DNA of 64,000 nucleotides, taken from positions 1,184,001-1,248,000 of the forward strand of contig CAWGTN010000002.1 in the NCBI GenBank assembly GCA_963825525.1. The letters run 5' to 3'. Positions 28,735-49,037 of this stretch are shown piece after piece. This DNA is from an uncultured Chloroflexia bacterium. GTDB lineage: Bacteria > Chloroflexota > Limnocylindria > QHBO01. A program made the position numbers and the translations under genes. Every line of letters begins with the position of its first letter. The first letter of the stretch is position 1. The notes below the pieces were generated by a model. The model did no database searches. It had not been told where the DNA came from and worked only from the letters and a program-made list of their open reading frames with translations.

Positions 28735-28823
28735 TCCGCCCTCTGACCTGCCTACAATCGGCTCGGTGTCGTCCGGGCCGATTGCGGTACCCGGGACAGC
28801 CAGACCCGAGGACGATCCCGCCG

Positions 28824-29462: not shown

Positions 29463-30313
29463 CGGCCAGGCTGCTCGACGGACGCGACGTCGCGTCCCAC
29501 CTGAGGCGGGAGCTGCGCCACCGCGTCGAACGGCTGGTCGGCGCTGACTCGGATCGGCCGCCGCAGCTCGCGATCCTGCGCTCGGGAAGAAGCGAAGCGT
29601 CCGAGCTGTACGCGTCGAGCCTCGACCGTGCGGCGCGCAGCGTCGGCGTCGAGCCGCTGGCCCTGACCGAGGAGTCCGGCTCGCTGGCCGACGCGATCGA
29701 CCGGCTCAACGACGATCCTCGCGTCGCCGGCATCGTCGTGGCCCAGCCGCTCGGCGATCCCGAGCACGGCCGCCAGCTGGTCGAGCGCATCGATCCGGCG
29801 AAGGACGTGGACGGCGCCACGCCCGCGAACGCCGGCTGGTTGGCGCGTGGCGAACCCGCCTTCGTTCCGGCGACCGCGCTGGCGGTGATCGCCCTGCTCG
29901 GCGCCTACGACATCCCCATCGCCGGACAGCGCGCCGTGATCATCGGCCGCTCGGCGGTGGTCGGTCGCCCGGTCGCCTCGCTGTTGCTGGCGCGGGACGC
30001 CACGGTCGTCATCTGCCACCGCTCGACCCACAACCTTGCCCGGGAGACTCGTCGCGCAGAGCTGCTCATTGCCGCCGCCGGGTCGCCTGGCCTGGTTCGC
30101 AGCGAGATGGTCAATCGGTCGGCGGTGGTGGTCGACTGTGGGATCAACGCCACACCATCGGGGATTGTCGGAGACGTCGACTTCGCGACCGTCTCGCCGG
30201 TTGTGCAGGCCATCAGCCCGGTGCCCGGGGGGATCGGCCCGGTGACGCCCATGATGGTGCTGCGCCAGACGATCGAGTCAGCCGAGCGCGACGCCGGAAG
30301 CGACCGGCCCTAG
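29459..30313 (+). CDS. folD: Methylenetetrahydrofolate dehydrogenase/cyclohydrolase
   Basis: LLDGR, IDPAKDVDG, FVPAT, IGRSAVVGRP, VVVDCGIN, GDVDF, PVPGGIGPVT. Confidence 0.92.
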   Translation: MTARLLDGRDVASHLRRELRHRVERLVGADSDRPPQLAILRSGRSEASELYASSLDRAARSVGVEPLALTEESGSLADAIDRLNDDPRVAGIVVAQPLGDPEHGRQLVERIDPAKDVDGATPANAGWLARGEPAFVPATALAVIALLGAYDIPIAGQRAVIIGRSAVVGRPVASLLLARDATVVICHRSTHNLARETRRAELLIAAAGSPGLVRSEMVNRSAVVVDCGINATPSGIVGDVDFATVSPVVQAISPVPGGIGPVTPMMVLRQTIESAERDAGSDRP

Positions 30314-31302
30314 GGCGACGGATCGGCGACCATCTCCGCCAGCGCCACGCTGCCGTCGATGAACCCCAGCCGGACCATCGTGTCGTAGCCGGCGGCCCAC
30401 GTGACCTGGTCGATCTCCCCATTGTCGAAACCGTCGCCGCGCCACAGCTCGATGGTCGCGTCGAGCACCGCGCGCGCCACCTCCGGGTCCTCGGCGATGG
30501 TCGGCACCGTCGCTTCCGCGGCCGCGAAGGCGGTGTCCGGATCGGCGATCGCCTCCGCCTGTGCCAGGGCCGTTGCCTCGACGAATGCACGCACCAGGGC
30601 GGGGTCCTCTTCGAGCAGCGCGTCACCCACGATCAGGCCGGGACCGGGAAGCGGCGCGACGTCATCGACCGTCAACAGCCCGACATCCATGCCACGCGCC
30701 TCGAGCCGCAGCGGCTCGTTGTTCCGAAAGCCCGTGATGAGGTCGACGTCCCCGTTCGAGAGCCCATCGACCTGGTTGAACTGGGGGTACTCGCGGATGG
30801 TCACGTCATCTACGGTGAGGTCGCCCGCCTCCAGCAGCGCCAGCAGCGCATGCCAGGATGACCCGAAACGACCCGGCGTCCCGATGGTCGAGCCGGACAG
30901 GTCGGCCGGATCGGATGGGACGGCACCTGCCTCGCCGATGATCGCCACCGGAAAGCCCTGGTAGAGCGTGCTCACGTACTTGACCGGAATCCCCTGGGTC
31001 CGGGCGATCATGACGTCGGTGGCATCGGCCACGCCGAACTCCGCCCGCCCATCGGCCACCAGGCGCTGGACGTCGGGCGCCTGCTCGTGGCGGATGGTCA
31101 CCTCGAGCCCCGCCGTTGCGTAGAAACCCTCCCGTTGCGCGACGTAGAACGGCGCGAACTGAACGTCCGGTCGATATCCGAGAACCAGCGTCACCGGACG
31201 TAGCTCCGGGGCGCTTGCTGGGCATGCCGCGAAGGGGCCGCACTCGCATGCGGCAACCAGCGGCAGGATGGCGAGAACGAGGACGAGTCGCACGGAACGC
31301 AT
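30310..31302 (-). CDS. NMT1/THI5-type ABC substrate-binding lipoprotein (RibY-like, probable riboflavin binding)
   Basis: Lipobox VAAC; GYRPDVQFAPFYVA, GFRNNEP; last gene of an FMN-riboswitch operon. Confidence 0.85.
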   Translation of the reverse strand: MRSVRLVLVLAILPLVAACECGPFAACPASAPELRPVTLVLGYRPDVQFAPFYVAQREGFYATAGLEVTIRHEQAPDVQRLVADGRAEFGVADATDVMIARTQGIPVKYVSTLYQGFPVAIIGEAGAVPSDPADLSGSTIGTPGRFGSSWHALLALLEAGDLTVDDVTIREYPQFNQVDGLSNGDVDLITGFRNNEPLRLEARGMDVGLLTVDDVAPLPGPGLIVGDALLEEDPALVRAFVEATALAQAEAIADPDTAFAAAEATVPTIAEDPEVARAVLDATIELWRGDGFDNGEIDQVTWAAGYDTMVRLGFIDGSVALAEMVADPSP

Positions 31303-31313
31303 CGATGGTCCTT

Positions 31314-32054
31314 TCACTGGCTGATGAGGCGACGCTCGACGACGACCACCAGCCCGTAGAAGACGAGGCCGATGATGGCGAGCGCGGCGAGGGCTACGAA
31401 CATGAGGGGCGTGTCGAACAGGCCCTGGTTGGCGATGTTGATGAGGACGCCGAGACCCGTGGACGCCCCGGCCCACTCGGCCACGACGGCACCGATCACG
31501 GCCAGGGTCACTCCGACTCGAAGCCCGCCGAAGATGACCGGCAGCGCTGACGGAATCTCGAGCAGCCGCGTCCGCTGGGCCGGTCCGGCGCCGAGGCTGT
31601 GCAGCATCTCGGCGAGCTGCGGATCAGTCGAACGGACGCCGACCATGGTGGCGATGGCAATCGGGAAGAAGACGATGAGGGCGCAGATGACGACCCGAGC
31701 CAGCAGGCCACCGCCGAACCAGATGTCGAGCAGTGGCGCGAGGGCCAGGATCGGCACCGCCTGCGCGGCAACGATGTACGGCGACAGCACGCGCTCGACC
31801 AGCACGCTCTTGCCGAGCGCGATCCCGGTCAGGATTGCCGTCGAGGCGCCGGCCGCGAAACCGAGGACGATCTCGAGCAGCGTGACCGCGGTGTGCTCCC
31901 AGAGGACTCCCGAGCCAATCGCACGCACCGCACGCTCCGCCACGATCCCGGGAGCCGGAAGGATGTACTCCGGATAGCCGCCGACGGCGACGACCAATGT
32001 CCACACGGCGAGGAACGCGGCCAGGCTGAGGACAGCGGCGCCGATGCGCTTCAC
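31314..32054 (-). CDS. ABC permease (RibX-like)
   Basis: YILPAP, QAVPILALAPL, LPVIFGGLRVG, IGAVVAEW. Confidence 0.9.
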   Translation of the reverse strand: MKRIGAAVLSLAAFLAVWTLVVAVGGYPEYILPAPGIVAERAVRAIGSGVLWEHTAVTLLEIVLGFAAGASTAILTGIALGKSVLVERVLSPYIVAAQAVPILALAPLLDIWFGGGLLARVVICALIVFFPIAIATMVGVRSTDPQLAEMLHSLGAGPAQRTRLLEIPSALPVIFGGLRVGVTLAVIGAVVAEWAGASTGLGVLINIANQGLFDTPLMFVALAALAIIGLVFYGLVVVVERRLISQ

Positions 32055-32872
32055 GCCACGCCCTCCGACCAGGGTCTCAGCTCGACGGCGTGGGACGCGG
32101 CCAGTGCCTCGCGCACGTCGGCTGCGAGCGCCGCCGTGGCGGGCTCGCCGATGAGCCCCGGTCCGCGGGGCCGCGGCAGCGCGACGTCCACGGTGCGGGT
32201 CACGCGCCCCGGGCGCGGCGCCATGACGACCACGCGATCAGCAAGCTGGATTGCCTCGATGACGCTGTGAGTCACGAGCACGACGGTGCGCGGGCGGTCC
32301 ATCCACAGCCGCTGGAGCTCGGTGTTGAAGGTTTCGCGGGTGAGCGCATCGAGGGCGCTGAAAGGCTCGTCGAGGAGCAGGACCGGTGGGTCGCTGATGA
32401 GCGCGCGAGCCAGTCCGGCCCGCTGCGCCATACCTCCGGACAGCTCGCGCGGCCGAAGCCCGGCGGCGACTCCCAGGCCGACCCTTTCGAGCGCGGCCAG
32501 CGCCCGCTCGCGACGCGCTCTCGGAGCAACGCCGGTGATCTCGAGTGGCAGGGCCACGTTGTCCAGGGTGGAGCGCCACGGAACGAGCCGCGGCTGCTGG
32601 AATGCGAGACCCACCCGTCCGTAGCCCGGGCGCGGTGTCCGGCCACCGACCGCCACGCTTCCGCCGGACGGCGCGAGAAGACCGGCAATGAGCCTTAGGA
32701 GTGTGCTCTTGCCGCACCCGTTCGGCCCGATCACGACGTTGAACGACCCTGCCGCGATGTCCAGGTTGAGGCCGCCGAGCGCCTGCACCTCGCCCGCGGG
32801 CGACGAGAAGCGCATGTCGACCTCACGGATCGAGATGTCCAGGCCCGGGTCGTCCGCGCTGTTCACGCTCAT
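32051..32872 (-). CDS. ABC ATP-binding protein
   Basis: GPNGCGKST, LSGGMAQR, LLLDEPFSALDALTR, VTHS. Confidence 0.93.
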   Translation of the reverse strand: MSVNSADDPGLDISIREVDMRFSSPAGEVQALGGLNLDIAAGSFNVVIGPNGCGKSTLLRLIAGLLAPSGGSVAVGGRTPRPGYGRVGLAFQQPRLVPWRSTLDNVALPLEITGVAPRARRERALAALERVGLGVAAGLRPRELSGGMAQRAGLARALISDPPVLLLDEPFSALDALTRETFNTELQRLWMDRPRTVVLVTHSVIEAIQLADRVVVMAPRPGRVTRTVDVALPRPRGPGLIGEPATAALAADVREALAASHAVELRPWSEGVA

Positions 32873-32950
32873 CGGGTGCTCCCATGTCGTCGATTCGATC
32901 GCGCACGGGGCCACGCCATCGCTCCCCACCACGACACGGCGGGGCGCGTG

Positions 32951-33111
32951 GTCGTCTTCTCCCTTCCGGACTGTGACCGTCGGCCCTGTCTGCTCCGGCG
33001 TGCGCCGGAGGTCAGGTCAGCCGCACCAGCGACAGTGCCGATGCGGTTCGCGGGCTGGCTCGGTGAGGAGCCGACCGCCGGTGGGGACTTTCACCCCGCC
33101 CCGAAGACGAT
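32951..33111 (-). ncRNA. FMN riboswitch (RFN element), variant with insertions
   Basis: Minus strand TCGTCTTCGGGGCGGGGTGAAAGTCCCCACCGGCGGT...AGCCCGCGA...GCCGACGGTCACAGTCCGGAAGGGAGAAGACGA, upstream of an NMT1-type ABC transporter. Confidence 0.92.
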
Positions 33112-33154
33112 TTGGTTCGATTGGCATCGATCGTGGCATGGCCGACTCGCGCGG

Positions 33155-33826
33155 TCAACCGGCCTCGGCATCGCCTCGCTTGGCGAGCAGCCATCGCACC
33201 ACCAGCAGGCCGATGACGGCCAGCACCACGGCATAGATGACGTACTCGTACGGCTTGAGCGCCGCCTCGATCTCGACGTAGTTCTCGCCGACCACGAAGC
33301 CGGCGTAGATGAGCGCGGCATTCCAGGGCAGCGAGCCCAGGGTGCTGAAGAGGAGGAAGCGACCCATCGGCATGCGACTGATGCCGGCCGGGTAGCTCAC
33401 GAAGGTGCGGACCAGCGGCACCATGCGGCCGAAGAAGACGGCCCACGAACCCCATCGCTCGAACCATCGGTCCGCCCTGTCGAGATCGGGTGCGCCGATA
33501 CCGACATAGCGGCCGAATCGGTCCAGCAGGGGTCGGCCTCCCCACGCGCCGATGTAGTAGCCGACCAGCGCCCCGACGACGCTGCCCACCGTCGCCAGGA
33601 TCACCGCGAGCGGGATGTTCCACGGCAGCCCGGTGAGTGGTTCGAGCACCGATGGATCGGCGGCGGACTGGCTGACCTTCCATCCCGCCATCGGCAGGAT
33701 GACCTCGGACGGGATGGGCGCGACGATGGTCTCGAGTGCCACGGCCACCCCGACGCCGACGTAGCCGACCGAGTCGTACATCTGAAGGACGAACGGGATG
33801 ACCTGCTGGTCGATGAAGTCGAGCAG
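33155..33826 (-). CDS. DedA family membrane protein
   Basis: LE...PIPSEVILP.AG, GR.VPLVRTFVSYPAG..RM...RF. Start CTG 33826 or ATG 33781. Confidence 0.88.
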   Translation of the reverse strand: MLDFIDQQVIPFVLQMYDSVGYVGVGVAVALETIVAPIPSEVILPMAGWKVSQSAADPSVLEPLTGLPWNIPLAVILATVGSVVGALVGYYIGAWGGRPLLDRFGRYVGIGAPDLDRADRWFERWGSWAVFFGRMVPLVRTFVSYPAGISRMPMGRFLLFSTLGSLPWNAALIYAGFVVGENYVEIEAALKPYEYVIYAVVLAVIGLLVVRWLLAKRGDAEAG

Positions 33827-33831
33827 TGCCC

Positions 33832-34665
33832 CTAGCCCCCGGCCTGGGTGCGTCGTGGTACCGCCACGCGTCGCTCGCCCGAGGCGGCGCGCTCGGCCTG
33901 GGCAGCCAGCTCACGGGCGCGCGCCCGCTCGTCAACCCTGAGGACGTGGACCGCGACAAGGATCGCGAGCAGCGCGGCGCCGGCCATCAGGCCGCCCACG
34001 ATGTCCATCGGGTAGTGCGCTCCGAGATAGATGCGGGTGGCGCTGATGGCGCCGACGAAGATCGCCGCCACGACGTACGCGATCTGGCCCTGGCGGTAAT
34101 CGTGGGCGAGCCGCGCAACGCTGAACGCGGCGATGCCATACAGGACCGTGGCCCGCAATGCGTGACCGGCAGGAAAGTCGGCGATGTCATCGAGCCCCAC
34201 GTTGTTGACGTTGACGATCGCGCCGAGGAGCGCGGTGAAGCTGATGGCGTCGGACGAGGTGAAGTACTTCAGCGCCCACTCCATCGGGAAGGCGAGCGTC
34301 CCGAGCGCGAAGAGCAGCGCCAGGTCGCGCCGGCCCTTGGCCAGCGACAGGAGCCCGAGACCGGCAAAGGCCAGGGCCACGAACCATCCACTTCCCAGCG
34401 CGCTGATGGCAATCACCAGGAACTCGACCGGAGCAAGGTTGCTCTCGACCCACCCCCGGATGGCCGGGATGATGGTCGTCATCATCCATTCCTCGGGGGC
34501 CGTGTAGACGGTCGTGCGCTTGAGCATCACGAGCCAGAACAGCCCGGGCAGGGCGATCACCGCCAGCAGGAAGGCCGCGGCCGGGCTGGGCACTGCTCCT
34601 CCGAGGTCATGCGCTGCCTCGTCGCTCACCACGAGGCGTCTCATCGGGTCAGGCAGCCGTCGCAC
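33832..34665 (-). CDS. PAP2 family phosphatase-like membrane protein
   Basis: FPAGHA and TRIYLGAHYPMDIVGG motifs; several TM segments. Confidence 0.85.
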   Translation of the reverse strand: MRRLPDPMRRLVVSDEAAHDLGGAVPSPAAAFLLAVIALPGLFWLVMLKRTTVYTAPEEWMMTTIIPAIRGWVESNLAPVEFLVIAISALGSGWFVALAFAGLGLLSLAKGRRDLALLFALGTLAFPMEWALKYFTSSDAISFTALLGAIVNVNNVGLDDIADFPAGHALRATVLYGIAAFSVARLAHDYRQGQIAYVVAAIFVGAISATRIYLGAHYPMDIVGGLMAGAALLAILVAVHVLRVDERARARELAAQAERAASGERRVAVPRRTQAGG

Positions 34666-34685
34666 GGTGCGTAGTATAGGGATCG

Positions 34686-36215
34686 ATGCCGCCGCTACCG
34701 CTCTCTGGCCGGGACCTCACCATCGACAACGTGATCGAGGTGGCGCGTGGACGACGGCAGGTCGCGCTGGACCCCCATGCCGCCACCCGGATGCGGGCGT
34801 CACGCCAGATCGTCGAGAAGCTCGTGGCCGACGGCGCCACGGCGTATGGCATCACCACCGGCTTCGGTGACCTCGCCGATGTCCGCATCGAGCCGGATCT
34901 GACCGCCGAGCTACAGCGGAACCTCGTCCGATCCCACGCGGCCGGTGTGGGCCAGCCATTGCCCGACGACGTGGTGCGCGCGATGCTCGTCCTGCGAGCC
35001 AATACCCTTGCCATCGGCCTGTCGGGCGCGCGCGTCGAAGTGGCAGACCTGCTGATCGGCATGCTCAACGGCGCCGTTCACCCGGTGATCCCGGCGCGGG
35101 GCAGCCTCGGCGCCTCCGGGGACCTCGCGCCGCTCGCGCACCTGGCCCTGGTGATGATCGGAGAGGGCGCGGCGACCGTCGACGGCGCCGGACCGGGGCC
35201 GGGTGCCGAGGCACTCGAACGTGCCGGACTCGCACCGCTCGAGCTGCAGGCCAAGGAGGGCCTCGCACTGCTGAACGGGACGCAGCTGATGGCTGGCATC
35301 GGCGCCCTCGCGCACCACGATGCGCTGAGGCTGGCCCTGACCGCCGACGTGGTGGGTGCCATGAGCCTCGAGGCGATGCTCGGCACCGGCGCGGCATTCG
35401 ACGAGCGACTGGTGGCGGCGCGACCACACGCCGGCCAGGTGGCATCGGCGGCACACCTCCGAGCGCTGCTGGCCGACAGCCAGATCGCCGCCTCGCACGC
35501 GCAGAGCGATCACCGCGTGCAGGACGCCTACAGCCTGCGCTGCATGCCCCAGGTCCACGGCGCTGCGCGGGACGCCATCGCCGAGCTGGCCAGGGTGCTC
35601 TCGGTGGAGATCAATTCCGTCACGGACAACCCGCTCGTCTTCCCGACCGGCGAGATCGTCTCGGGCGGCAATTTCCACGGTGAGCCGGTGGCCATGGCAC
35701 TCGACTACGCGACGATCGCGGTCGCCGAGCTGGCCTCGATCTCTGAACGTCGTACGGCTCGCCTGGTGGACGCGCACCTCTCCGGGTTGCCCGCCTTCCT
35801 CGCGGAGCGGCCGGGGGTCGAGAGCGGGCTGATGATCGCGCACTACACCGCGGCGGCCCTCGTCAACGAGCTCCAGACGCTGGCCCACCCATCGTCCGTC
35901 GACACCATCCCGACCAGCGCCAACCAGGAGGACCACGTGAGCATGGGCGGGACGGCGGCGCTGCACCTGCGCGAGGCGGTCGACCGCGCCGAGCTCGTCC
36001 TTGCCATCGAAGCGCTGTGCGCCGCCCAAGGCCTGGACTTTCGGGCGCCGATGCGTCCGGGAGCCGGCGTGGCGGCGGCGCATGCCCGCATCAGGACCCG
36101 GGTGCCCCACCTCGACGCGGACCGACCCCCGTCGCCGGACATCTCGGCCGTCCGCGAGCTGGTCCACTCTGGCGAGCTCCTCGCCAATGGCGCGACGCAG
36201 ACGGCACATGGCTGA
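34686..36215 (+). CDS. hutH: Histidine ammonia-lyase
   Basis: YGITTGFG, NLVRSHAAG, MIO motif GASGDLAPLAH, KEGLALLNGT, QDAYSLRCMPQVHG, SANQEDHVSMG. Confidence 0.96.
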   Translation: MPPLPLSGRDLTIDNVIEVARGRRQVALDPHAATRMRASRQIVEKLVADGATAYGITTGFGDLADVRIEPDLTAELQRNLVRSHAAGVGQPLPDDVVRAMLVLRANTLAIGLSGARVEVADLLIGMLNGAVHPVIPARGSLGASGDLAPLAHLALVMIGEGAATVDGAGPGPGAEALERAGLAPLELQAKEGLALLNGTQLMAGIGALAHHDALRLALTADVVGAMSLEAMLGTGAAFDERLVAARPHAGQVASAAHLRALLADSQIAASHAQSDHRVQDAYSLRCMPQVHGAARDAIAELARVLSVEINSVTDNPLVFPTGEIVSGGNFHGEPVAMALDYATIAVAELASISERRTARLVDAHLSGLPAFLAERPGVESGLMIAHYTAAALVNELQTLAHPSSVDTIPTSANQEDHVSMGGTAALHLREAVDRAELVLAIEALCAAQGLDFRAPMRPGAGVAAAHARIRTRVPHLDADRPPSPDISAVRELVHSGELLANGATQTAHG

Positions 36216-36960
36216 CCTGCACTTCGAGCTCGTCGACGAGCAGAGCCTCGAGCGGATTCCCGCGCCCGCCCGGCCCGGGGCCCGATGCCAGACCTGCGAC
36301 TACTGGGAGCGAATCGACGGGACCCGTGACGCTCCGGCGAGCGACGCCACGGATGCCGCCGCGCGGGCCGCGCTCAAGCGCCGGCGTCTCCTGGCGGGCC
36401 AGGAGGTTGCGGGTGCGTACGCCATGATCGCGTATCGGCGCGTCGGCCCCGACCGACCGGCCGTTGGCTACGCGCAGTTCGGACCACTCAGCGCCTATCC
36501 GCGTGCACAGTCGATCCGTGAGCGGTACCCCCAGCTGCCGGACTCGCCGGCTCCGTGGGTCATCACCTGCCTGCAGGTCCTGGCGGGCGTCGACGATCGC
36601 GACGAGGCAGCGGCCGCGCTGCTGGACGCCGTGTGTGACGAGCTCGACGGTCGGGGCATCACGGCGGTGGAGGCGTATCCCGAGAGCGCCAGCGACCCAT
36701 GGATCCCCTCTCCGGGACCGGCATCGGTCTACGCGGCGGCGCACTTCGACCTGGCCGCCGGCGACGAGCGGTATCCCGTCTTCCGCCGCGAGCTGACGGG
36801 CGAGACGGATGCCGATGCGTGGGCCGGCCTGCTGGCGGCGAGTGCGCCTGACGAGGGCGACGATTGGCCGCTGCCGCTCCCGCCCACTCGCGACCCGGAT
36901 GACCTGTTCCGGCTGCCGCCCGACGGTCCGAAGCGGCCCAATCCGTTCGGCGAGGACTGA
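36208..36960 (+). CDS. GNAT-fold acetyltransferase-like protein with CxxCxxWE motif
   Basis: RCQTCDYWE, VGYAQFGP, VITCL, RGITAVEAYP; overlaps the hutH stop. Confidence 0.65.
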   Translation: MADLHFELVDEQSLERIPAPARPGARCQTCDYWERIDGTRDAPASDATDAAARAALKRRRLLAGQEVAGAYAMIAYRRVGPDRPAVGYAQFGPLSAYPRAQSIRERYPQLPDSPAPWVITCLQVLAGVDDRDEAAAALLDAVCDELDGRGITAVEAYPESASDPWIPSPGPASVYAAAHFDLAAGDERYPVFRRELTGETDADAWAGLLAASAPDEGDDWPLPLPPTRDPDDLFRLPPDGPKRPNPFGED

Positions 36961-37002
36961 GGCTGCAAGAATCCGGGCATCTCGGCTGTTGTACGAGATG
37001 AC

Positions 37003-37500
37003 ATGGAGGGGATCGCCCAGATGACCCAGGCCTCGGACCGCGAATCGGCCTTCGCCGATATCGTTGCTGAGCACTATCCGGGACTCGTTCGACGGCTGAC
37101 CGCGGTCCTGCGCGACCCGGAGGCAGCACGGGACCTCGCGCAGGAAACATATCTCCGCGCTCATCGCTCGTGGCATCGATTCGACGGCGCCGATCCCCGC
37201 GCCTGGCTGCACACGATCGGTCTCCGGCTCGCCTTCAACGAGCGCGATCGACGGGCCAGATGGGGACGGCTGGTGAGCACCGGTGCCGAGAACGCAAGCT
37301 GGGTCGCCCCGGAAGACCACGGCCTGCACGAGGCCCTCGGGCTCTTGCGGCGCGAGCATCGGGCCGCGCTCCTGCTGACGATGGTCGACGGCTATACCCA
37401 GGCCGAGGCAGCCGCGATGCTCGACGTCGCCCCCGGGACGGTGGCGAGCTGGATCTCACGGGCCAGGACACAGCTGCGGGAGGCGCTCCGAGATGCGTGA
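37003..37500 (+). CDS. ECF sigma factor
   Basis: ARDLAQETYLRA, RAWLHTI, region 4 GYTQAEAAAMLDVAPGTVASWISRAR. Confidence 0.9.
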   Translation: MEGIAQMTQASDRESAFADIVAEHYPGLVRRLTAVLRDPEAARDLAQETYLRAHRSWHRFDGADPRAWLHTIGLRLAFNERDRRARWGRLVSTGAENASWVAPEDHGLHEALGLLRREHRAALLLTMVDGYTQAEAAAMLDVAPGTVASWISRARTQLREALRDA

Positions 37501-38932
37501 CGATCAATTCGACGAAGCTCTCGCGCGTCGCCTGCGCGCCTACGAGGACCACCTGTCGGTCGCCGACGGACCAGCCTCCGCCGGGAGGCCTCGGTCCCGC
37601 GGCGTCGGATGGGCGGTGCTGGCAGGAGGCGGGGCGGCGGCCCTCGCGGCTGGCGCGCTGGCGTTCGCCGTGTTCAACGGGGCGCTAAGCGGTCCCACCG
37701 GTGGGCCATCAACGGCATCCGCATCGCCGTCTCCGTCAGCCTCCGCGGTGCCATCGGAGGTGCCATCGGCCAGCGCCACGTCGGAGCCGTCGGCCCCACC
37801 GGCGAGCAACGCTCCGACGCCGGGGCCGATCACGGGTCTGCCTGACTCTTGGACGGTCTCGGCGCAATTTACCGATCCCGAAGGACGCTACCTGGTGACC
37901 GATCTCGTCGAGTGGTCGGACGAGCTCGTCGCCGTGGGCGCGCGCTGGAGCGCTCCGTCCCAGGGCGTCTACGGACCGCCGCCGGTGCTGGCCGGGACCG
38001 TGTGGCGATCCGGCGACGGCTTGACGTGGACGGACGTGTCACCGGTCGGCCCCGATGAAGGCGAGCAATTGTTCGTCGAACTGTCCCTCGAGCATGTGTT
38101 TGTGACATCGGACGGCTCACTGGTCGTCGTCGGCGAGTCGTGGCCGGAAGCCCGCACCGGGACCCAACCATCGGGATTCGCGTGGGAGACACACGACGGA
38201 GAGACCTGGAATCCGTACGTGTTCACGGGCATGCCGGCCGGTGTCCACGTCCCGCTGATGGAGAGTGGAGCGCGAGGGCACGTGGCCGCAACGCGCGACG
38301 ATGCCGGGATGGCGATCTGGCATTCGCCGGACGGACGGCAATGGGCGAAGGCCCTCGACATCGCATCCGTCGCCGACCTCGGTGCCGGCGACGAGGGGTT
38401 CGCTGCCGTGGTGCGCGACGAGGGCAGCGATTTCCTGGAGGCGCGCATCATCGCGTCGGGCGACGGCCTGACATGGGTGGATGCGGACACTCCATCGGGT
38501 GAGGTGTCGGCCGTCGGCGCCATCGGTCCCGACTGGTTGACAGCGGGCACGGCGTTCGACGGCGACGTGGAAACTGAAAACACAGCCCGGACGTGGACGT
38601 CGGAGAACGCACTGACCTGGAGCGAGATCGTGAGCCTTCGCCTCGGTCGAATCGGTGAGGACCCGCCGTGTCTCGAGACCGTTGGTGGCCTCGAGATCAC
38701 CGGCCCGATCGCGATCTTGACCACGGGTCGGTGCGGGGAGGGCGGCGTGGTCACGGCGGGAAGTGCTTACGGAAGCTTCGATGCCGGAGGTTGGGAGCCG
38801 CTGCCGTTCGGTGACTACGCCCGCGTCAGCGGGATCGCGCGCATCGGCGATCGCCTCGTCGTGGTCACCGACACGCTGACGGGAAACGCGCCGGAGATCG
38901 GCGTGACGTTCTGGGTGGGCGCGCTGCCATGA
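37493..38932 (+). CDS. Putative anti-sigma membrane protein with extracellular beta-propeller (Asp-box-like repeats)
   Basis: Short N-terminal helix, one TM, Ser/Pro linker, repeated W.S.DG.TW motifs; overlaps the sigma stop. Confidence 0.7.
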   Translation: MRDDQFDEALARRLRAYEDHLSVADGPASAGRPRSRGVGWAVLAGGGAAALAAGALAFAVFNGALSGPTGGPSTASASPSPSASAVPSEVPSASATSEPSAPPASNAPTPGPITGLPDSWTVSAQFTDPEGRYLVTDLVEWSDELVAVGARWSAPSQGVYGPPPVLAGTVWRSGDGLTWTDVSPVGPDEGEQLFVELSLEHVFVTSDGSLVVVGESWPEARTGTQPSGFAWETHDGETWNPYVFTGMPAGVHVPLMESGARGHVAATRDDAGMAIWHSPDGRQWAKALDIASVADLGAGDEGFAAVVRDEGSDFLEARIIASGDGLTWVDADTPSGEVSAVGAIGPDWLTAGTAFDGDVETENTARTWTSENALTWSEIVSLRLGRIGEDPPCLETVGGLEITGPIAILTTGRCGEGGVVTAGSAYGSFDAGGWEPLPFGDYARVSGIARIGDRLVVVTDTLTGNAPEIGVTFWVGALP

Positions 38933-38962
38933 TCGGGTGAGGTCCGCGCGTATCATCGGCGG

Positions 38963-40640
<1,678 letters not shown>

Positions 40641-40647
40641 CCGCCTG

Positions 40648-41811
40648 ATGACGAGGCGCTCGGCCGACGAGCCGTTGCCCGGTCCGCCCGATCCATGGGA
40701 GCCGTCGCAGATGCCGGCCTTCCGGGGGAGGGCGCCGTACCTGATGAGCGAGATGATCGCCGCCGAACCGGCCATGGCGGAACGGCTGCTCCATCGCCTT
40801 CCCGCCCAGCCCGGCTTCGAGCAGCTGGTTCTGGAGATCCAGGCTGCCAGGCAGCGTGGGCAGCCGATCATCACCACCGGGTGCGGGACATCCGAGCACG
40901 CGGCAATGGCCGTGGCCGCCCTCCTGAACGAGGCGCTCGACCTGCCGGCCGGGGCAGACATCCACTCCGTCCAGGCGCTGGAGCTGCTCGCCCGCCCGCC
41001 CTCTCGCGGCCTGCTCATCGCGGTCTCCCACGAGGGCGGGACGGCCATGACCAATGCGGCCCTGCGTTCCGCAAGGGATGCGGGTGCCGCCACCGCGCTC
41101 ATCACCGTCGGCCCCGGCTCACCGGGAGCCGAGCTGGCGCAGACTATCGTCACAACCGAGGAGCAGGATCAGAGCTGGTGTCACACGGTCGGCTATCTCT
41201 CGCCGGTCCTCGTCGGGGTGGCGCTGGCCGCCCGACTCGGCGGGCGGAAGCTCGACGTTCTCGGCGTCCGGGCCCTGCTCGACGGCGGGCGTGAGCCGCA
41301 GGCCGCGGCGACGCTCGCTTCGGCGCTGGCCGAGTGCGATCGAATCCTGGTCGCGGGATCGGGCGTCGACCACGTATCGGCCCGTGAGCTGGCCCTGAAG
41401 ATCGCCGAGGGAGCGCATCTGCCCACATCGGCCCACGAACTCGAAACCCTCCTCCACGGACACCTCGCCGCAGCCACGCGCTGGACGGGGTTGGTCCTGG
41501 TGATGGCGGGGTCGGCCCCGAGCGCCGCGGTCCGAGAGCGCGGCGCGGCACTGCTGGCAGCCGCCGCCGCATTGTCGATCCCGACGGCAGCAATCCTGTC
41601 CGCCGCGGTTGCCGCGACCATTTCATCCGACGCGACGCCGGCCGGCCGGGTCGTCCTGCCACGAGAGGGAAGGATGCCCGGGTCGACCCCCGCGCTGCTC
41701 GGCGCGGCAATGGCGCTTCAGCTGATCACCGAACGCCTGGCGCGCACGAGGAATATCAACCCCGACACGCTGGGTCGTGAGGATGTAGCGCAGGCCGCCG
41801 CCCACGCCTGA
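40648..41811 (+). CDS. SIS domain (GlmS/AgaS-like) sugar-phosphate isomerase protein
   Basis: TGCGTSEHAA, AVSHEGGT, ELALKIAEG, HGH, RNINPD. Confidence 0.8.
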   Translation: MTRRSADEPLPGPPDPWEPSQMPAFRGRAPYLMSEMIAAEPAMAERLLHRLPAQPGFEQLVLEIQAARQRGQPIITTGCGTSEHAAMAVAALLNEALDLPAGADIHSVQALELLARPPSRGLLIAVSHEGGTAMTNAALRSARDAGAATALITVGPGSPGAELAQTIVTTEEQDQSWCHTVGYLSPVLVGVALAARLGGRKLDVLGVRALLDGGREPQAAATLASALAECDRILVAGSGVDHVSARELALKIAEGAHLPTSAHELETLLHGHLAAATRWTGLVLVMAGSAPSAAVRERGAALLAAAAALSIPTAAILSAAVAATISSDATPAGRVVLPREGRMPGSTPALLGAAMALQLITERLARTRNINPDTLGREDVAQAAAHA

Positions 41812-42897
41812 TCAGCCGCGCCTGAGAAGCTCGAACAGGCGGACGTAGAAGCGAAGGTTGTGCAACGTGGCGAGCCGTTCCGCGGAGACATCCCCCACCT
41901 TGAAGAGGTGATGGAGATAGGCGGCGGAGTGCTTCGCGCACAGCGGGCAGTCGCATCCGTCCTCGACCGGCATATGGTCCACGCGGTACTCCGGGTCATG
42001 GATACGCACCGCGCGGTAGAAGTGGTCCCCTGACGACGGCGCCCGATCGGCCCAGCCGGTTCGAAAGGCATACAGCCGCCCATGCCGCGCATCGCGCGTC
42101 GGCAGGGCGCAGTCGAAGATCGAGTAGCCCAGCTCGAATGCCGTGACGACGTGGTCAGGCCGGCCGATGCCGAGGGCGTGCTTGGGGGCTTCGGGTGGCA
42201 GGGATTGCGCGACCCAGCCCAATGGGTCGGCGAGGAGCGCACTGTCGGCGTCGAGTGGCCAGCCGCCGAAGCCATAGCCGTCGAACCCGATCGACGCCAG
42301 CTCGGTTGCGCACTGCCGCCTCAGAACCTCGGATCCCCCGCCCTGGACGACCGCGAAGATCTGCGGCGGATCGTCGAGCTTGCGCTCCGCGACCTGCCGA
42401 TCAAACTCCTCGCGGCTCCGCCGTGCCCAGCGCACGGTCCGCTCGACCGACCGTTCCTGCTCGGCCTCTGGCGCATCGGCGTCCGTGCAGTCGTCCAGGC
42501 AGACCGCGATGTCGCTGCCGAGCTGAAACTGGAGGCCGATGATCCGTTCGGGCGTCAGGTTCCACTTCTCGCCGGTCGATGGCTCGCGGAAGATGACCTC
42601 GTTGTCGCGGATGACCCCGCGGTTCGGATCCTGGCGGATGAGGCTCCAGACCTGGAAGCCGCCCGAGTCGGACAGGATCGGCCCATCCCAGTCCATGAAG
42701 CGATGGATCCCGCCTGCCGACTGGATGACCCGCGCCCCCGGCCGCCGCAGGAGATGGAAGGCGTTGACGACCAGGGCCTCGATGCCGACGCGCCGCAGAT
42801 CGTCGCTGGATACGGCGCGCACGCCGGCCCGGGTGGCATCGGGCAGGAAGGTCGGCACCGCCAGGGCTCCGCGTCGTGAGACGAGCCGTTCAGCCAC
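41812..42897 (-). CDS. tgt: tRNA-guanine transglycosylase (divergent)
   Basis: DSGGFQ, LDDC, VVQGG, FDCALPTRDARHG, Zn site CDCPLC...HNL. Confidence 0.88.
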   Translation of the reverse strand: MAERLVSRRGALAVPTFLPDATRAGVRAVSSDDLRRVGIEALVVNAFHLLRRPGARVIQSAGGIHRFMDWDGPILSDSGGFQVWSLIRQDPNRGVIRDNEVIFREPSTGEKWNLTPERIIGLQFQLGSDIAVCLDDCTDADAPEAEQERSVERTVRWARRSREEFDRQVAERKLDDPPQIFAVVQGGGSEVLRRQCATELASIGFDGYGFGGWPLDADSALLADPLGWVAQSLPPEAPKHALGIGRPDHVVTAFELGYSIFDCALPTRDARHGRLYAFRTGWADRAPSSGDHFYRAVRIHDPEYRVDHMPVEDGCDCPLCAKHSAAYLHHLFKVGDVSAERLATLHNLRFYVRLFELLRRG

Positions 42898-43684
42898 GGA
42901 GCGTGACCACCGCGATGAGCTCGTTGGGAACCGAGACCTCGGTCACGTCGACCACACGCGACGAGGCCGCAAGCAGCCTCTCGAGGCGATCCCGATACGC
43001 GCGCTCCATGCCTCGACCTCGACCGCCGAGGGAGCGCGTCGTGAAGCTGACGACTGCGTGCCGGACCCGCAGGCCCGCGATGAGCCGGTCCGCCGCCGCC
43101 GGGTCCTGCCGATCGAGGGTTGTGACCAGCTTGAAGAGCAGCCCGACGTCGGCGACGTCGGTCGGGGGACGCGCGACCAGGTCCAGGACCTCGACGCCGC
43201 CGGGCTGGCCGACGAGCTCGAGAAAGGCGGCGACCGTCCGCAGCACGCGCAGGTCAACATCGGATGCGGTAACCCGGGCGTCCGCGGCCAGGCCCATCCA
43301 CGGCAGCGTGAGCGGATTCAGTCCGCATCCGAGGTCCAGCACCGACTTCGGTTGGCCGGTGACGGCCCAGATGGCCGGGTAGAGATCATCGAGGACCGCG
43401 ACACGTTCGCTCGTCGAGGCATGGGCACGGAGGACGCGCACGCAGGCGGCACGGAAGCCGGGATCGGTCAGCTCGCCGCTCCACGCCGCGGCCATGCCCG
43501 CATCGGAGATGGCTCCTCGGAACGCCCCCACAGCCTGGTGGAGCCGCCGCTTCACGCGCTTCACCGTCTCATCCGGCGACCTGGACGGGGCCATCTCGTC
43601 GTCCACCAGCCGACCGAGGAACGCGGGAGCGACGTCACGGTACCGGGAAGATTCGAGCACGCGGTCCACGATCTCGCGCGTCAC
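42890..43684 (-). CDS. 16S rRNA (guanine(1405)-N7)-methyltransferase family (FmrO/ArmA/Rmt-like)
   Basis: SRYRDV, VKRRLHQAVGAF, HASTSER, SAM motif VLDLGCGLNPL, LLFKLVTTLDRQ, VVSFTTRSLGGRGRGM..Y, NEL. Confidence 0.85.
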   Translation of the reverse strand: MTREIVDRVLESSRYRDVAPAFLGRLVDDEMAPSRSPDETVKRVKRRLHQAVGAFRGAISDAGMAAAWSGELTDPGFRAACVRVLRAHASTSERVAVLDDLYPAIWAVTGQPKSVLDLGCGLNPLTLPWMGLAADARVTASDVDLRVLRTVAAFLELVGQPGGVEVLDLVARPPTDVADVGLLFKLVTTLDRQDPAAADRLIAGLRVRHAVVSFTTRSLGGRGRGMERAYRDRLERLLAASSRVVDVTEVSVPNELIAVVTLRG

Positions 43685-44511
43685 CGCCCGCGCGCTGCCA
43701 GCACGAGGGCGTACGCGTCCCGCTTCGACAGCCCGTGACGCTGGATCAACAGCTCCTGGACGGCGCGCGATGGCGTGTCGTGCGACAGAAGCAGGTTGGC
43801 ATCGGCAGTGGCCGCATCGACCGAGGGCGAGCGATCGAGCGCCCCACCGACCAGCAGCGTGCACTCACCCCGAATGTCGCCCTCGCGCTCGAGGCCCTCG
43901 ATGAGGGCGGAAACCGAGGCTCGCTGATAGTTCTCGTGTGACTTCGTGATGCTGCGGGCCAGGCAGGCGGGGCGATCGCCAAGCACCGAGAGTACGTCGC
44001 CCAGCGTGGCCACCAGACGTCGGGGCGCCTCGAAGGCGATCAATGTCGCCGGATCGTCGCGCAGCGCCGCGAGCGCCGATCGTCGCGCGGCCGACGTGCG
44101 CGGCAGGAAGCCGATGAAGCGGAACGGATGAGGCGGCAGGCCGGAGACAGCCAGGGCGGTGGTCACGGCGGATGCGCCCGGGAGGCTGGTCACCTCCACC
44201 CCGGCCTCGAGGGCGGCACGTACGAGCCGATAGCCGGGATCGCTCACGAGCGGCGTTCCGGCATCGGACACCAGGGCCACGTCTTCGCCCGCCACCAGGC
44301 GCGCGACCAGCTCGCGGGCCCGGCCCTCCTCGTTGTGATCGTGGTAGCTGACCGCCGGCGTCTCGATACCGTGCCGCCGCGCCAGGGTTCGGAAGTGCCG
44401 CGTATCCTCGGCGGCCACCACGCCGACCGCGCTGAGGGTGGCGATGGCGCGCAGGGTGAGGTCGTCGGGATTTCCGATCGGAACGGCCACGACGAAGAGT
44501 CGCCCGCTCAC
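43681..44511 (-). CDS. rsmI: 16S rRNA (cytidine(1402)-2'-O)-methyltransferase
   Basis: VPIGNPDDLTLRA, AAEDTRH, LVSDAGTPLVSDPG, PGASA, FIGFLP, FEAPRRL, RGECTL. Confidence 0.94.
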   Translation of the reverse strand: MSGRLFVVAVPIGNPDDLTLRAIATLSAVGVVAAEDTRHFRTLARRHGIETPAVSYHDHNEEGRARELVARLVAGEDVALVSDAGTPLVSDPGYRLVRAALEAGVEVTSLPGASAVTTALAVSGLPPHPFRFIGFLPRTSAARRSALAALRDDPATLIAFEAPRRLVATLGDVLSVLGDRPACLARSITKSHENYQRASVSALIEGLEREGDIRGECTLLVGGALDRSPSVDAATADANLLLSHDTPSRAVQELLIQRHGLSKRDAYALVLAARGR

Positions 44512-44595
44512 GCTGAGATGCCGTCCATGGCTTGGAGCGTACCAGTCGCGGCGTGGAGTCCGGCAGTCGGCCACGGGCGCAGCTACGATCTGGAC

Positions 44596-45510
44596 GTGCC
44601 GGGACTGATTGAATGCGTGCCGAACTTCAGCGAAGGGCGGCGCGGCGACGTGGTCGAGCAGATCGTGCATGCCGTCGCGTCGATCGACGGAGTGACCGTG
44701 CTCGATCACACCCGCGACGTGACCCACAATCGCAGTGTGATCACGTTCGCGGGCAGCGCCGAGCCGGTGGTCAGGGCGGCGACGGCCGCGGTGGGTCGCG
44801 CCCTCGAGCTCATCGACATGTCGCAGCACCAGGGCGCCCACCCGCGCATCGGTGCGGTTGATGTCATCCCCTTCGTTCCGCTCGGACTCACCCGGATCGA
44901 GGAGTGCGTCGATCTGGCGCGTCGCTTCGGCGAGCAGATCGCGAGCCGATTCGACATCCCGGTGTACCTGTATGGCGATGCCGCCCTCCGTCCCGAGCGC
45001 CAGCGCCTGGCCGAGGTCCGGCGCGGCCAGTACGAGGCGATCCGCGACGAGATCGCGACCGTGCCGCATCGCGCCCCGGATTTCGGGCCACTGCGGGTCC
45101 ATCCTCGAGGCGGCGCCGTCGCGGTCGGCGCACGAAAGCCCCTCATCGCCTTCAACGTGAACCTCCGCACCGACGACCTGGCGGTGGCCATCAAGATCGC
45201 GCATCAGATCCGCGAGAGCTCGGGTGGCATGCCGGCGGTCCAGGCCATGGGCATCCTCCTCGAGAATCCCGGCCGGCCGCCGATGGCCCAGGTGAGCACG
45301 AACCTGGTGGACTGGGAGCGCACCGGGATCGCCCAGGTGGTCGGCGAGGTCAGGCGACTCGCGCGCGAGGCAGGGACGGATATCGATCACTGCGAGCTGA
45401 TCGGCCTGGCCCCCACGGGGGCGCTGCTCGAGGTCGCGGCCGACGCTCTCGGCCTCGCGGATTTCAGCGTCGATCAGGCGCTCGAATTGCGACTCGCGCG
45501 CGACCGCTGA
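44596..45510 (+). CDS. ftcD: Glutamate formimidoyltransferase
   Basis: LIECVPNFSEGR, HNRSVIT, HQGAHPRIGAVDVIPFVP, RRGQYE, GAR.PLIAFNVNL, QVSTNL, ELIGLAP. Confidence 0.93.
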   Translation: MPGLIECVPNFSEGRRGDVVEQIVHAVASIDGVTVLDHTRDVTHNRSVITFAGSAEPVVRAATAAVGRALELIDMSQHQGAHPRIGAVDVIPFVPLGLTRIEECVDLARRFGEQIASRFDIPVYLYGDAALRPERQRLAEVRRGQYEAIRDEIATVPHRAPDFGPLRVHPRGGAVAVGARKPLIAFNVNLRTDDLAVAIKIAHQIRESSGGMPAVQAMGILLENPGRPPMAQVSTNLVDWERTGIAQVVGEVRRLAREAGTDIDHCELIGLAPTGALLEVAADALGLADFSVDQALELRLARDR

Positions 45511-47503: not shown

Positions 47504-48820
47504 TCAGCTCGCCGCGTTGACCGTTCGCGTGACGAGCTCGTCAGTCGTCGCGTGGACAACCAGGATGTCGCCATCGGGCAGCTCGATGACCGTCGCGGCG
47601 AAATCGAACGTTGAGATGACCGATTCATAGGCCGTGATGAACTCGGTGGCGTCGGTGGCCGTGTCCCAGCTCAGGCGCCACAACGCGGCGAACTCGTCGT
47701 CCGGACCTGCGGCGACCACCACTCGATCACCACCCCACCCGGCGGCCGCCTCCCGGGCTTCGACGGGGGAGGTTCCAAAGTGCTCGAGCATGATGGCGAT
47801 CGTCGCCTGTCCGATCGGGGTTGCGTCCACGTCGCGCCACCCCGTGCCAAGCGCCCCCGCCAGGTCGACTGGGTCGATCTCGTCCGGACCCTCCCGTGGT
47901 TCCCACTTATCGACATCGATCACCTGCTCCGTGCTGTCGGGTGGATCGGCGAACGCCGCGTCCAGCTCGGTGAAGTCGGGCCGGGTCGGATCGCCACCGG
48001 CCAGGACGGTCGTCCAGTTGAGGCCGGCCTCGTACGGGAACGCGAGCTGCGCGACCATCCAGGACGGGATGCCGGTGGTATCGGGGATGTCGACGCTGCC
48101 GAAGTACTCGAGAATCTCGGACTGGCTGAGGTTCTGAAGCATCCAGGCCAGCATCGTCACCGTGGCATCGCCCTCGATCAGTGCCGTCCGAGCAAGTCCC
48201 CGGTCGTCCTCCCCGGGCACATCGATCTCGAGGCTGTCGAGGTCGAACGCGGCGTCCTGCAGCGCGTGGGTGTACTCGTGTGCGTACGTGATCCGAGCCG
48301 CCACGTCGAGGCCGGCATCCGACACCACCACCATCCGCCGCTCGATGTCGTCGTAGAAGCCGAGCACCTGGTCACCGAGCAGCTCGAGCTGAAGCTCGGC
48401 AACGTCCTCGTCGGGGGCCAGCAGTCCGAGGGCGCGAAGGGTGAGATTGTCCCGGTCACGTTCGTCCTGCGGATACTGCTCGTCGAACAGGGTCCTGAGT
48501 TCGACGGCCAGCTCCTCCCGGCTGATGATCTCCGCGGGGCCGATGTCCGGCGCCGGGAGGCCCCGGATGGCAATCACCTGCTCCTCGATATCCGCAAGGA
48601 TCTGCATCACCTCCGCATCGGTTGGGGCGGACCCGGCGGGGACGACGGACGGGGTCGGCGTGCTCGGCAGCGAGGGGGCCGATGGATCCGCACTGGCGGA
48701 CGACCCGGGGGATGGACCCTCGGCAATGCCGGCGCCGCCGGCCGACAGGCCGAGCACCAGCACGGCGATCACGACGAGGATGGCCACCAGGATCGAGACG
48801 AGGCGTTGCGGGGTCGACAT
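47504..48820 (-). CDS. Membrane-anchored putative zinc metallopeptidase
   Basis: N-terminal TM, Ser/Pro linker, GFYD, HEYTHALQD (HExxH), EGDAT, FPY, GWGGDR. Confidence 0.75.
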   Translation of the reverse strand: MSTPQRLVSILVAILVVIAVLVLGLSAGGAGIAEGPSPGSSASADPSAPSLPSTPTPSVVPAGSAPTDAEVMQILADIEEQVIAIRGLPAPDIGPAEIISREELAVELRTLFDEQYPQDERDRDNLTLRALGLLAPDEDVAELQLELLGDQVLGFYDDIERRMVVVSDAGLDVAARITYAHEYTHALQDAAFDLDSLEIDVPGEDDRGLARTALIEGDATVTMLAWMLQNLSQSEILEYFGSVDIPDTTGIPSWMVAQLAFPYEAGLNWTTVLAGGDPTRPDFTELDAAFADPPDSTEQVIDVDKWEPREGPDEIDPVDLAGALGTGWRDVDATPIGQATIAIMLEHFGTSPVEAREAAAGWGGDRVVVAAGPDDEFAALWRLSWDTATDATEFITAYESVISTFDFAATVIELPDGDILVVHATTDELVTRTVNAAS

Positions 48821-49037
48821 CCGCGCCATTCTACGCAGCCGTCTTCAAGCGACCGGCCAAGGTTCAGGTTTCTTAAGACGCGGCAAGCCCGCGGTTTAGA
48901 TCGGCCTCTTAGTGTTCACGGTGCGAGATGGAGATCCCCGTGGTTTCCGCCTCCACCCTCCCTCCTTCGAGCCCCGGTGTCATTGGGCGGGCACCGGGGC
49001 TCGTGCTATCTCCCGATCGGCTACCATCGGTGAACCG

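Follow-up and report, generated by a model that had tools for sequence, protein, structure and literature searches.

An FmrO/Rmt-family 16S rRNA methyltransferase and its dedicated transglycosylase partner: a candidate two-enzyme modification of the decoding centre

The 64,000-nucleotide stretch of DNA analysed here (the window), part of contig CAWGTN010000002.1 of an uncultured soil Chloroflexota bacterium of the class Limnocylindria (assembly of 2.58 Mb in 4 contigs, 92% complete), carries on its minus strand a three-gene operon in which rmt, a gene of the FmrO/Rmt family of S-adenosylmethionine (SAM) methyltransferases, stands between rsmI and a second gene of the tRNA-guanine transglycosylase (TGT) family, here called tgt2. 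FmrO and TGT2 are an obligate, co-inherited pair. The families to which they belong, their conserved residues, their co-occurrence and gene order, a fusion of the two and their matching phylogenies suggest, with a probability of about 0.55, that Rmt and TGT2 together modify the 16S decoding centre in a way that has not been described. The first gene of the operon, rsmI (43681..44511, minus strand, GTG start at 44511), encodes the 16S rRNA C1402 2'-O-methyltransferase (TIGR00096 and PF00590); it scored 213.5 bits in the profile search with the TIGR00096 equivalog, whose cut-off is 167.9, and it is the sole copy found, with one match in the whole-genome search. It is followed on the same strand by rmt (42890..43684, GTG start at 43684), whose product of 264 amino acids (aa) matches PF07091 and which lies in an open reading frame spanning 42890..43864, and by tgt2 (41812..42897, minus strand, GTG start), which encodes a divergent TGT-family transglycosylase of 361 aa (PF01702). 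An earlier reading of the window, made from its letters and translations (the sequence-only reading), had pointed out that the three genes overlap, and both overlaps can be read in the DNA: rsmI and rmt share the four nucleotides GTGA at 43681-43684 (GGG CGG TGA over GTG ACG), and rmt and tgt2 share eight nucleotides at 42890-42897, the stop codon of rmt (TGA, 42890-42892) lying inside the GTG-started tgt2.

The assignment of 42890-43684 to the FmrO/ArmA/Rmt family, proposed in the sequence-only reading, was confirmed by the FmrO profile PF07091 (174.6 bits, E 3.3e-51, cut-off 27); the whole-genome search returned the same match, and none of 14 control genomes matched this profile. The closest solved structures by sequence are Sgm (E 1e-34), RmtC, RmtB, RmtF and ArmA. 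Sequence identity with RmtF is 33.7%, with RmtB 33.1%, with RmtC 28.7% and with ArmA 26.3%; the plasmid matches to Rmt, 1592 in number, fall under 60% identity without exception, the best of them reaching 33.7%. The AlphaFold2 model of Rmt (mean predicted local distance difference test, pLDDT, 93.6) consists of an N1/N2 helical domain joined to a class I methyltransferase fold, and in Foldseek it aligns over its full length with Sgm (template modelling score, TM, 0.88), RmtF (0.86) and RmtB (0.81). Rmt therefore shares with Sgm, RmtB, RmtC, RmtF and ArmA (the Kgm/Arm/FmrO family) the Pfam family and the architecture of a two-part N-terminal domain plus a Rossmann fold, and with the Sgm/Rmt/ArmA enzymes, besides TM values of 0.81-0.88, the residues for SAM binding, for docking on the 30S subunit and for distorting helix 44 (h44).

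The key residues of RmtC were established by mutagenesis and cryo-electron microscopy (10.1101/712810; PMC10054953), and the roles given there were mapped onto Rmt via alignments. In RmtC numbering, Rmt retains both SAM ligands, R111 and D160, and has conservative replacements at the positions that dock on the 30S subunit, Arg for K20 and Lys for R50; it is identical to RmtC at H54, K204, R211, Q212, R241 and M245, while K236 is replaced by the same Arg that is present in RmtB and RmtF. H54, R111, D160 and K204 are kept in 100/100 of the first ('a') FmrO copies and M245 in 98/100. Additionally, the 16S rRNA gene of the source genome has the canonical CCGCCCGTCAC context of G1405. Because the critical residues, the fold match and the canonical 16S context agree, rmt very probably encodes a 30S-binding G1405 N7 methyltransferase, and N7 of G1405 is the likely position that it methylates. 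Methylation at this position is known to confer resistance to 4,6-disubstituted aminoglycosides. The characterised members of the family, as reported in the sources named above, are G1405 N7 methyltransferases that give resistance (10.1101/712810; PMC10054953), and uncharacterised homologs from Chloroflexi already stand in the published family tree (10.1101/712810, legend of Fig. 1A). A tandem or nearby second FmrO copy ('b') was found at fourteen loci (L129, L134, L138, L139, L143, L155, L159, L162, L165, L167, L169, L172, L174 and L176); these copies form a deep clade of their own in which Met245 is lost and Arg241 often lost, so that they may methylate another nucleotide.

The source genome has two TGT genes, the tgt2 of the operon and a canonical tgt which adjoins queA and recA and lies on the same contig at a distance of about 920 kb (303309-304358 of the contig). 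The third gene of the operon had been named tgt in the sequence-only reading; it is not the housekeeping gene and encodes a dedicated paralog. Against PF01702 it scores 319.6-320.3 bits vs 483.6 bits for the canonical protein, and against the Tgt equivalog TIGR00430 (cut-off 306.75) it reaches 309.4 bits vs 453, while the DpdA model NF041059 gives TGT2 only 22.5 bits against a cut-off of 200. In sister genera that lack rmt the only TGT is the canonical one, and it is 38-42% identical to TGT2. In a FastTree phylogeny of 99 TGTs, 73 FmrO-linked and 26 canonical sequences split at one long branch with a support of 100; on these grounds TGT2 is a distinct clade and not the queuosine or housekeeping enzyme. 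Within the genus it is also the most conserved of the three operon proteins, with identities of 78-88% compared to 67-75% for RsmI and 55-66% for Rmt. A role as a non-catalytic partner comparable to eukaryotic QTRT2 was considered and ruled out, since all catalytic residues are kept and since one genome (G444) has TGT2 and no canonical TGT match.

The residues of TGT2 were aligned to those of Zymomonas mobilis TGT (PDB 1ozm and others) and of 98 relatives. TGT2 keeps Asp102, Gln107, Asp156, Cys158, Gln203, Gly229/230, Asp280, Arg286 and Arg289 as well as the zinc site (Cys318/320/323/His349), and 45 TGT2 sequences show no variation at the catalytic Asp102/Asp280, at Asp156 or at the zinc site. 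The nucleophile, the general acid/base and the contacts to the Watson-Crick face of guanine are thereby retained. In the source TGT2 the segment GGWPLDAD replaces GGL[SA]VGE, which corresponds to Leu231 to Trp, Ala232 to Pro, Val233 to Leu and the loss of Glu235; GGWPL is present in 44/44 FmrO-linked TGTs and GGL[SA]VGE in 24/25 canonical ones (the remaining one has GGLSLGE), and the Trp-Pro pair is invariant in 45/45 TGT2 sequences, whose motif overall is GGWP[LIVM]. Additionally, position 45 is Asp in 100% of the linked copies vs Val in 100% of the canonical ones, Leu259/Met260 are changed to Ala/Leu (L259A, M260L), and the TGT2 of the Limnocylindria lineage has an insertion of about 11 residues. 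The AlphaFold2 model (pLDDT 94.7) superimposes on Z. mobilis TGT with a TM of 0.87 at 35% identity. In structural work on the Z. mobilis enzyme, the Leu231/Ala232 peptide is described as flipping between a state in which its NH points inward and binds guanine N7 via a water molecule and a state in which its carbonyl faces preQ1, Glu235 holding either one (Biela 2013, PMC3660597). With a proline at position 232, which lacks the NH, and without Glu235, TGT2 has lost the very element with which the canonical enzyme reads position 7 of guanine, and it retains those for catalysis and for recognition of the rest of a guanine-like base.

The coupling of the two genes was analysed in 401 Chloroflexota genomes from 215 genera, the same set being searched for FmrO, TGT and TGT2 and co-occurrence being tallied by hand. 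FmrO was found in 77 of these genomes, belonging to 37 genera. Scores of the TGT2 profile were clearly bimodal, with 71 full-length matches at 503-614 bits and canonical TGTs at no more than 334 bits, and three more TGT2 matches were truncated and had the same per-residue score. All 74 TGT2-positive genomes were FmrO-positive and 74 of the 77 FmrO-positive genomes carry TGT2, whereas the profile search found TGT2 in none of the 324 FmrO-negative Chloroflexota genomes. In Chloroflexota of other classes a TGT stands beside FmrO at 23 of 30 loci; the remaining 7 genomes carry TGT2 elsewhere, and because FmrO and TGT2 are non-adjacent there, the association is independent of a shared operon. The pairwise distances of Rmt and TGT2, taken over 2628 pairs that are not independent, correlate with r = 0.84, and the major groupings of one tree recur in the other. 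It is highly likely that FmrO and TGT2 act in one pathway. Ten unpublished genomes (G006, G141, G233, G254, G345, G428, G461, G492, G545 and G608) entered the tallies and two unpublished loci (L012 and L025) the synteny counts, trees and alignment; removing the unpublished data shifts the counts by a few units, and none of the conclusions depends on these data alone. In one genome (G427), a TGT2 fragment with two in-frame stops was observed beside a truncated FmrO.

The pairing extends well beyond Chloroflexota. A scan of one genome per species gave at least 593 FmrO loci, and among the best 80 of them, which cover at least seven phyla, a TGT lies within 4 kb at 63 loci and is of the GGWP type at 62. 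Loci with FmrO and a GGWP-type TGT were found in Latescibacterota (4/4), Armatimonadota (2/2), Hydrogenedentes, Thermoanaerobaculia, a member of Planctomycetota and an alphaproteobacterial metagenome-assembled genome, and among the carriers of FmrO and TGT2 in culture are Anaerobacterium chartisolvens DSM 27016 and Ktedonospora formicarum SOSP1-1. In a low-GC organism the two proteins are fused into a single TGT2-FmrO polypeptide of 628 aa (P0341/P0391), which was found on two contigs. Another candidate FmrO-TGT fusion (P0338) was rejected as a frameshifted translation, and a RecN-FmrO protein (P0285) is likely a merged gene call.

The genes around FmrO point to the same region of the ribosome. 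In the same best 80 of the at least 593 FmrO loci, rsmI is adjacent at 41, and in Streptomyces sp. 4N509B one protein annotated only as RsmI (P0323, WP_443219758.1, 551 aa) is an FmrO-RsmI fusion. When all flanking open reading frames of 66 loci were clustered to rank the neighbours, RsmF-like proteins were found at 17 loci, their best NCBIfam match being the C1407 m5C enzyme with a score under its cut-off, and RsmE-like proteins at 8 (TIGR00046, 140 bits vs 41). Anaerolineaceae have the layout rsmI-tgt2-rmt-rmt'-rsmF-(rsmE). RsmI, RsmF and RsmE are described as modifying the top of h44 on the mature 30S subunit (PMC10054953). Taken with these neighbours, it seems reasonably likely that the FmrO-TGT2 pathway concerns the 16S decoding centre.

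In the two-enzyme modification proposed here, all three enzymes of the operon would most likely act at the top of 16S h44. RsmI would make Cm1402, and Rmt would bind the 30S subunit, flip out G1405 and methylate its N7 in the manner of RmtC and Sgm. TGT2 would then act on the rRNA after Rmt, with m7G as the base displaced: m7G, without the N7 lone pair, would be a good leaving group, which TGT2 would exchange for another base. TGT2 is placed downstream of Rmt because no TGT2 was found in the absence of FmrO, which in turn can occur by itself. The displacement of m7G by TGT2 acting after the methyltransferase is a tentative part of the proposal; it is suggested by this asymmetric dependence, by the confinement of the pocket change to the N7 sensor and by the fact that m7G is the better leaving group, which is established chemistry. 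Additionally, 7-methylguanine is reported to be a competitive inhibitor in the base pocket of TGT (PMC9299380). A more speculative extension, which we consider rather doubtful, is that m7G1405 primes the base installation by TGT2 and that the ArmA/Rmt and Sgm/Kgm enzymes are 'orphaned' first halves of an ancient housekeeping pathway. G1405 as the target, rRNA as the substrate of TGT2 and the order of the two reactions are predictions from sequences and structural models.

Several observations weigh against a joint modification of the decoding centre by Rmt and TGT2. Transglycosylation of rRNA is not known to us, and the literature searches gave no example of it. The canonical substrate of TGT is a U-G-U loop, and G1405 lies in a helical C-G-U. 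Co-expression of the enzyme that writes a mark and the one that removes its product seems wasteful if the base brought in is guanine itself, and a home-made 7-deazaguanine is not generally available to the carriers, because QueC was found in only 30 of the 74 TGT2-positive genomes (E<=1e-20, tallied by hand) and 44 of them, the source genome included, are without it. Three FmrO-positive genomes have no detectable TGT2 (G420, which is fragmented, G481, which is frameshifted, and G652), and since related genomes are not independent, there are fewer separate events than the co-occurrence counts suggest. The 628-aa fusion has R, A and A at the positions of RmtC H54, K236 and R241, and because these RmtC-critical residues are changed its target may differ. 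The score of Rmt against the NCBI Rmt-family equivalog NF000466, 198.2 bits, is below the cut-off of 250, and the NCBI allele-level models give 72-116 bits vs cut-offs of 500-550, so that the name of an Rmt resistance allele would not be appropriate for it. Finally, the trees were made with FastTree or quick IQ-TREE runs that gave base-composition warnings.

With regard to the incoming base, neither QueC nor QueF was found in the 92%-complete source genome; as the canonical tgt is present, the precursors of queuosine are probably salvaged. The carriers that lack QueC keep canonical tgt, and salvage of a 7-deazaguanine is for this reason possible in them as well. The presence of QueC is neutral as a discriminator of the base that TGT2 might bring in.

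The same evidence can be read in other ways. If the operon served plain intrinsic protection against aminoglycosides, m7G1405 would be a stable end product, serving constitutively for resistance or fitness, and TGT2 a second tRNA transglycosylase, specific for another base or position, that is encoded in the same operon. The characterised family members are all G1405 N7 resistance methyltransferases whose critical residues Rmt keeps, and TGT2 retains R286/R289 and passes the Tgt equivalog cut-off, although only just (309.4 vs 306.75); we nevertheless regard this explanation as unlikely, since it accounts neither for the absence of TGT2 where FmrO is missing (0/324), a rule that holds even with the genes on different contigs, nor for the fusion and a pocket change restricted to the N7 sensor, nor for neighbours that are rRNA rather than tRNA enzymes. 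Another possibility, to which we give a still lower chance, is that the mark is reversible and TGT2 swaps m7G back to guanine, either to make the methylation of the decoding centre tunable or to clear misplaced m7G. Guanine is always available, also to the 44/74 carriers without QueC, the pocket of TGT2 keeps all contacts to the guanine face, and 7-methylguanine is known to inhibit TGT competitively from within the base pocket (PMC9299380). The overlap of rmt and tgt2, which are probably co-translated, would however turn such an arrangement into a futile cycle, and guanine should be bound less well once the amide contact to its N7 is gone.

The involvement of G1405 could itself be questioned, Rmt and TGT2 both acting on another RNA such as a tRNA. 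Rmt is below the Rmt equivalog cut-off, and the loss of RmtC-critical residues from the 'b' copies and the fusion indicates that targets may vary within the family; yet the source Rmt and 98-100 of the 100 'a' copies keep the residues that distort h44 and dock on the 30S subunit, and the genes to which the module is linked, rsmI, rsmF and rsmE, all encode enzymes that act on h44, which makes this reading very improbable. The least credible of the alternatives is a recently acquired mobile resistance island. It is true that the nearest relative of the pair belongs to another phylum, which requires at least one horizontal transfer. The sequence-only reading had reported no transposase and no compositional anomaly near the operon, and both statements hold: families of transposases and integrases had no match in the 37 open reading frames scanned, taken from the 81 that lie between 28 and 58 kb and encode 150 aa or more (the other 44 being mostly overlapping or opposite-strand shadows), and GC is flat at 0.69-0.70 over 41-45 kb, within the window's range of 0.63-0.73. 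Moreover, the synteny is fixed over six genera at a divergence of 55-88%, and none of the plasmid matches exceeds 34% identity.

Within Limnocylindria, FmrO was found in 23/24 other species of the genus in a first draw and in 35/37 in a second one, and five more genera of the family have it (7/7, 7/8, 1/1, 1/1 and 1/1); the remaining sampled genera of the family (0/13, 0/12, 0/8 and 0/5, for example) and 191 genomes of the other families of the class gave no match. The order rsmI-rmt-tgt is kept in all 28 loci of the class that were inspected (20 + 8), two of them cut by contig ends. In few-contig assemblies (L017-L020, L112 and L137) frameshifts were observed in rsmI, rmt or tgt2 alike, and these look like long-read assembly indels rather than gene decay. 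A genome of a different genus (G043, 95% complete, 2 contigs) has the same neighbourhood genes and an rsmI that is 73% identical, and neither an rmt nor a second TGT was found in it. Because its RsmI nests inside the rmt-bearing clade of the RsmI tree with a support of 96, the pair has been lost secondarily in G043. In G043, rsmI lies on the opposite side of the SIS-domain gene relative to the layout of the source genome, and the roughly 1.2 kb between the two genes (locus L042, 4120-5303) could be remnants of rmt-tgt2 or an unrelated gene.

The distribution, together with the loss in G043, implies that inheritance has been vertical in the sub-clade and that the pair is dispensable and not ancestral to the class. 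In a quick IQ-TREE phylogeny of concatenated Rmt and TGT2, which gave composition warnings, the closest relative of the Limnocylindria pair is a pair from Planctomycetota in which rmt likewise precedes tgt (sister groups, support 96), and both fall in a 28-row, mostly non-Chloroflexota group (support 98) apart from the main Chloroflexota group of 44 rows. This topology suggests a horizontal acquisition at the base of the Limnocylindria sub-clade; the pair was probably acquired once beside a resident rsmI and then inherited vertically. The backbone of the RsmI tree is a polytomy, compatible with a transfer of the pair either together with rsmI or without it. The proposal in the sequence-only reading that rmt is a vertically inherited gene is thus upheld within the genus (35/37 species, non-mobile) and fails for the lineage as a whole, where FmrO was not found in the 191 genomes of other families and the nearest pair is from Planctomycetota; a sporadic distribution on mobile elements, which would have spoken for the opposite, was not observed, the genes being chromosomal and syntenic in the genus.

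On its own, rmt would add a member to a known family, while the rmt-tgt2 module appears undescribed in the literature found. In the literature searched, no paper was found on the pairing of FmrO with TGT, on the GGWP clade or on a link with rsmF/rsmE, and none on the pairing in searches on 7-methylguanine and TGT or on Limnocylindria and aminoglycosides, subscription journals not being covered in either case. In public annotations the FmrO genes are listed as 16S rRNA methyltransferases and TGT2 as 'Tgt', so that hundreds of the latter annotations are probably wrong. Rmt differs from the clinical and producer enzymes in its identity of 26-34%, its chromosomal location in an rRNA-modification operon and its obligate TGT-paralog partner; to our knowledge, the known Sgm/Rmt/ArmA enzymes are encoded in antibiotic gene clusters, on transposons or on plasmids, without a TGT partner. 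TGT2 is unlike the Z. mobilis Tgt in being a second copy without a queA link whose presence tracks FmrO and not the queuosine genes. The scaffold has precedents for use beyond tRNA position 34 in DpdA, which acts on DNA, and in Cap10 of the CBASS defence systems, which acts on protein; unlike these, TGT2 has no dpd or CBASS genes adjacent and its partner is an rRNA methyltransferase. RsmI, RsmH, RsmF and RsmE, which are described as acting at the top of h44 on the mature 30S subunit, are near-universal, in contrast to the patchy FmrO-TGT2 pair (77/401).

The ArmA/Rmt enzymes are among the most serious causes of pan-aminoglycoside resistance, and their natural role outside antibiotic producers is unexplained. 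In many environmental phyla, the normal setting of the family appears to be a fixed partnership with TGT2 among housekeeping modifiers of the decoding centre, and the pairing offers a testable idea of the purpose of the family, since it predicts an undescribed rRNA modification and harmless carriers in culture are at hand. If m7G1405 does prime the installation of another base by TGT2, ribosomal RNA would for the first time be shown to undergo base exchange, and TGT2 would be the first m7G-dependent TGT. The suggestion that the gene belongs to an environmental reservoir of the clinical genes has to be tempered: with an identity of only 26-34% and an NF000466 score of 198 vs 250, the rmt of the source genome is a distant, non-mobile relative and not a near source of them.

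The genes that surround the operon include hutH, a frameshifted hutU, a SIS-domain gene, ftcD, argS and transport genes. Upstream of rsmI, a probable divergent promoter region shared with ftcD is placed at 44512..44595 (no strand assigned); this placement requires that the GTG at 44596 be the start of ftcD, and position 1 of the FTCD_N profile aligns at about 44605. A consensus scan for promoters and terminators in 41400-44900 gave 0 sites, such a scan being uninformative for a high-GC Chloroflexota genome. Two open reading frames that had no Pfam match at E<=1e-6, at 37493-38932 (plus strand) and 47504-48829 (minus strand), encode proteins of 479 and 441 aa whose N-termini are rich in Ala/Pro/Ser and resemble signals or anchors. 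Genes for histidine utilisation and one-carbon metabolism are scattered over 28512-45510 on both sides of the operon, with profile matches to FTCD_C (28512-29462), folD (29459-30313), hutH (34686-36215) and ftcD (about 44596-45510). Among them, the urocanase gene hutU (38963-40640, plus strand) is split into two overlapping open reading frames, 38963-39925 and 39696-40640, which interrupt the Rossmann domain at profile position 106/107; the ortholog in G043 is in a single frame, and the split is either a frameshift or an assembly indel.

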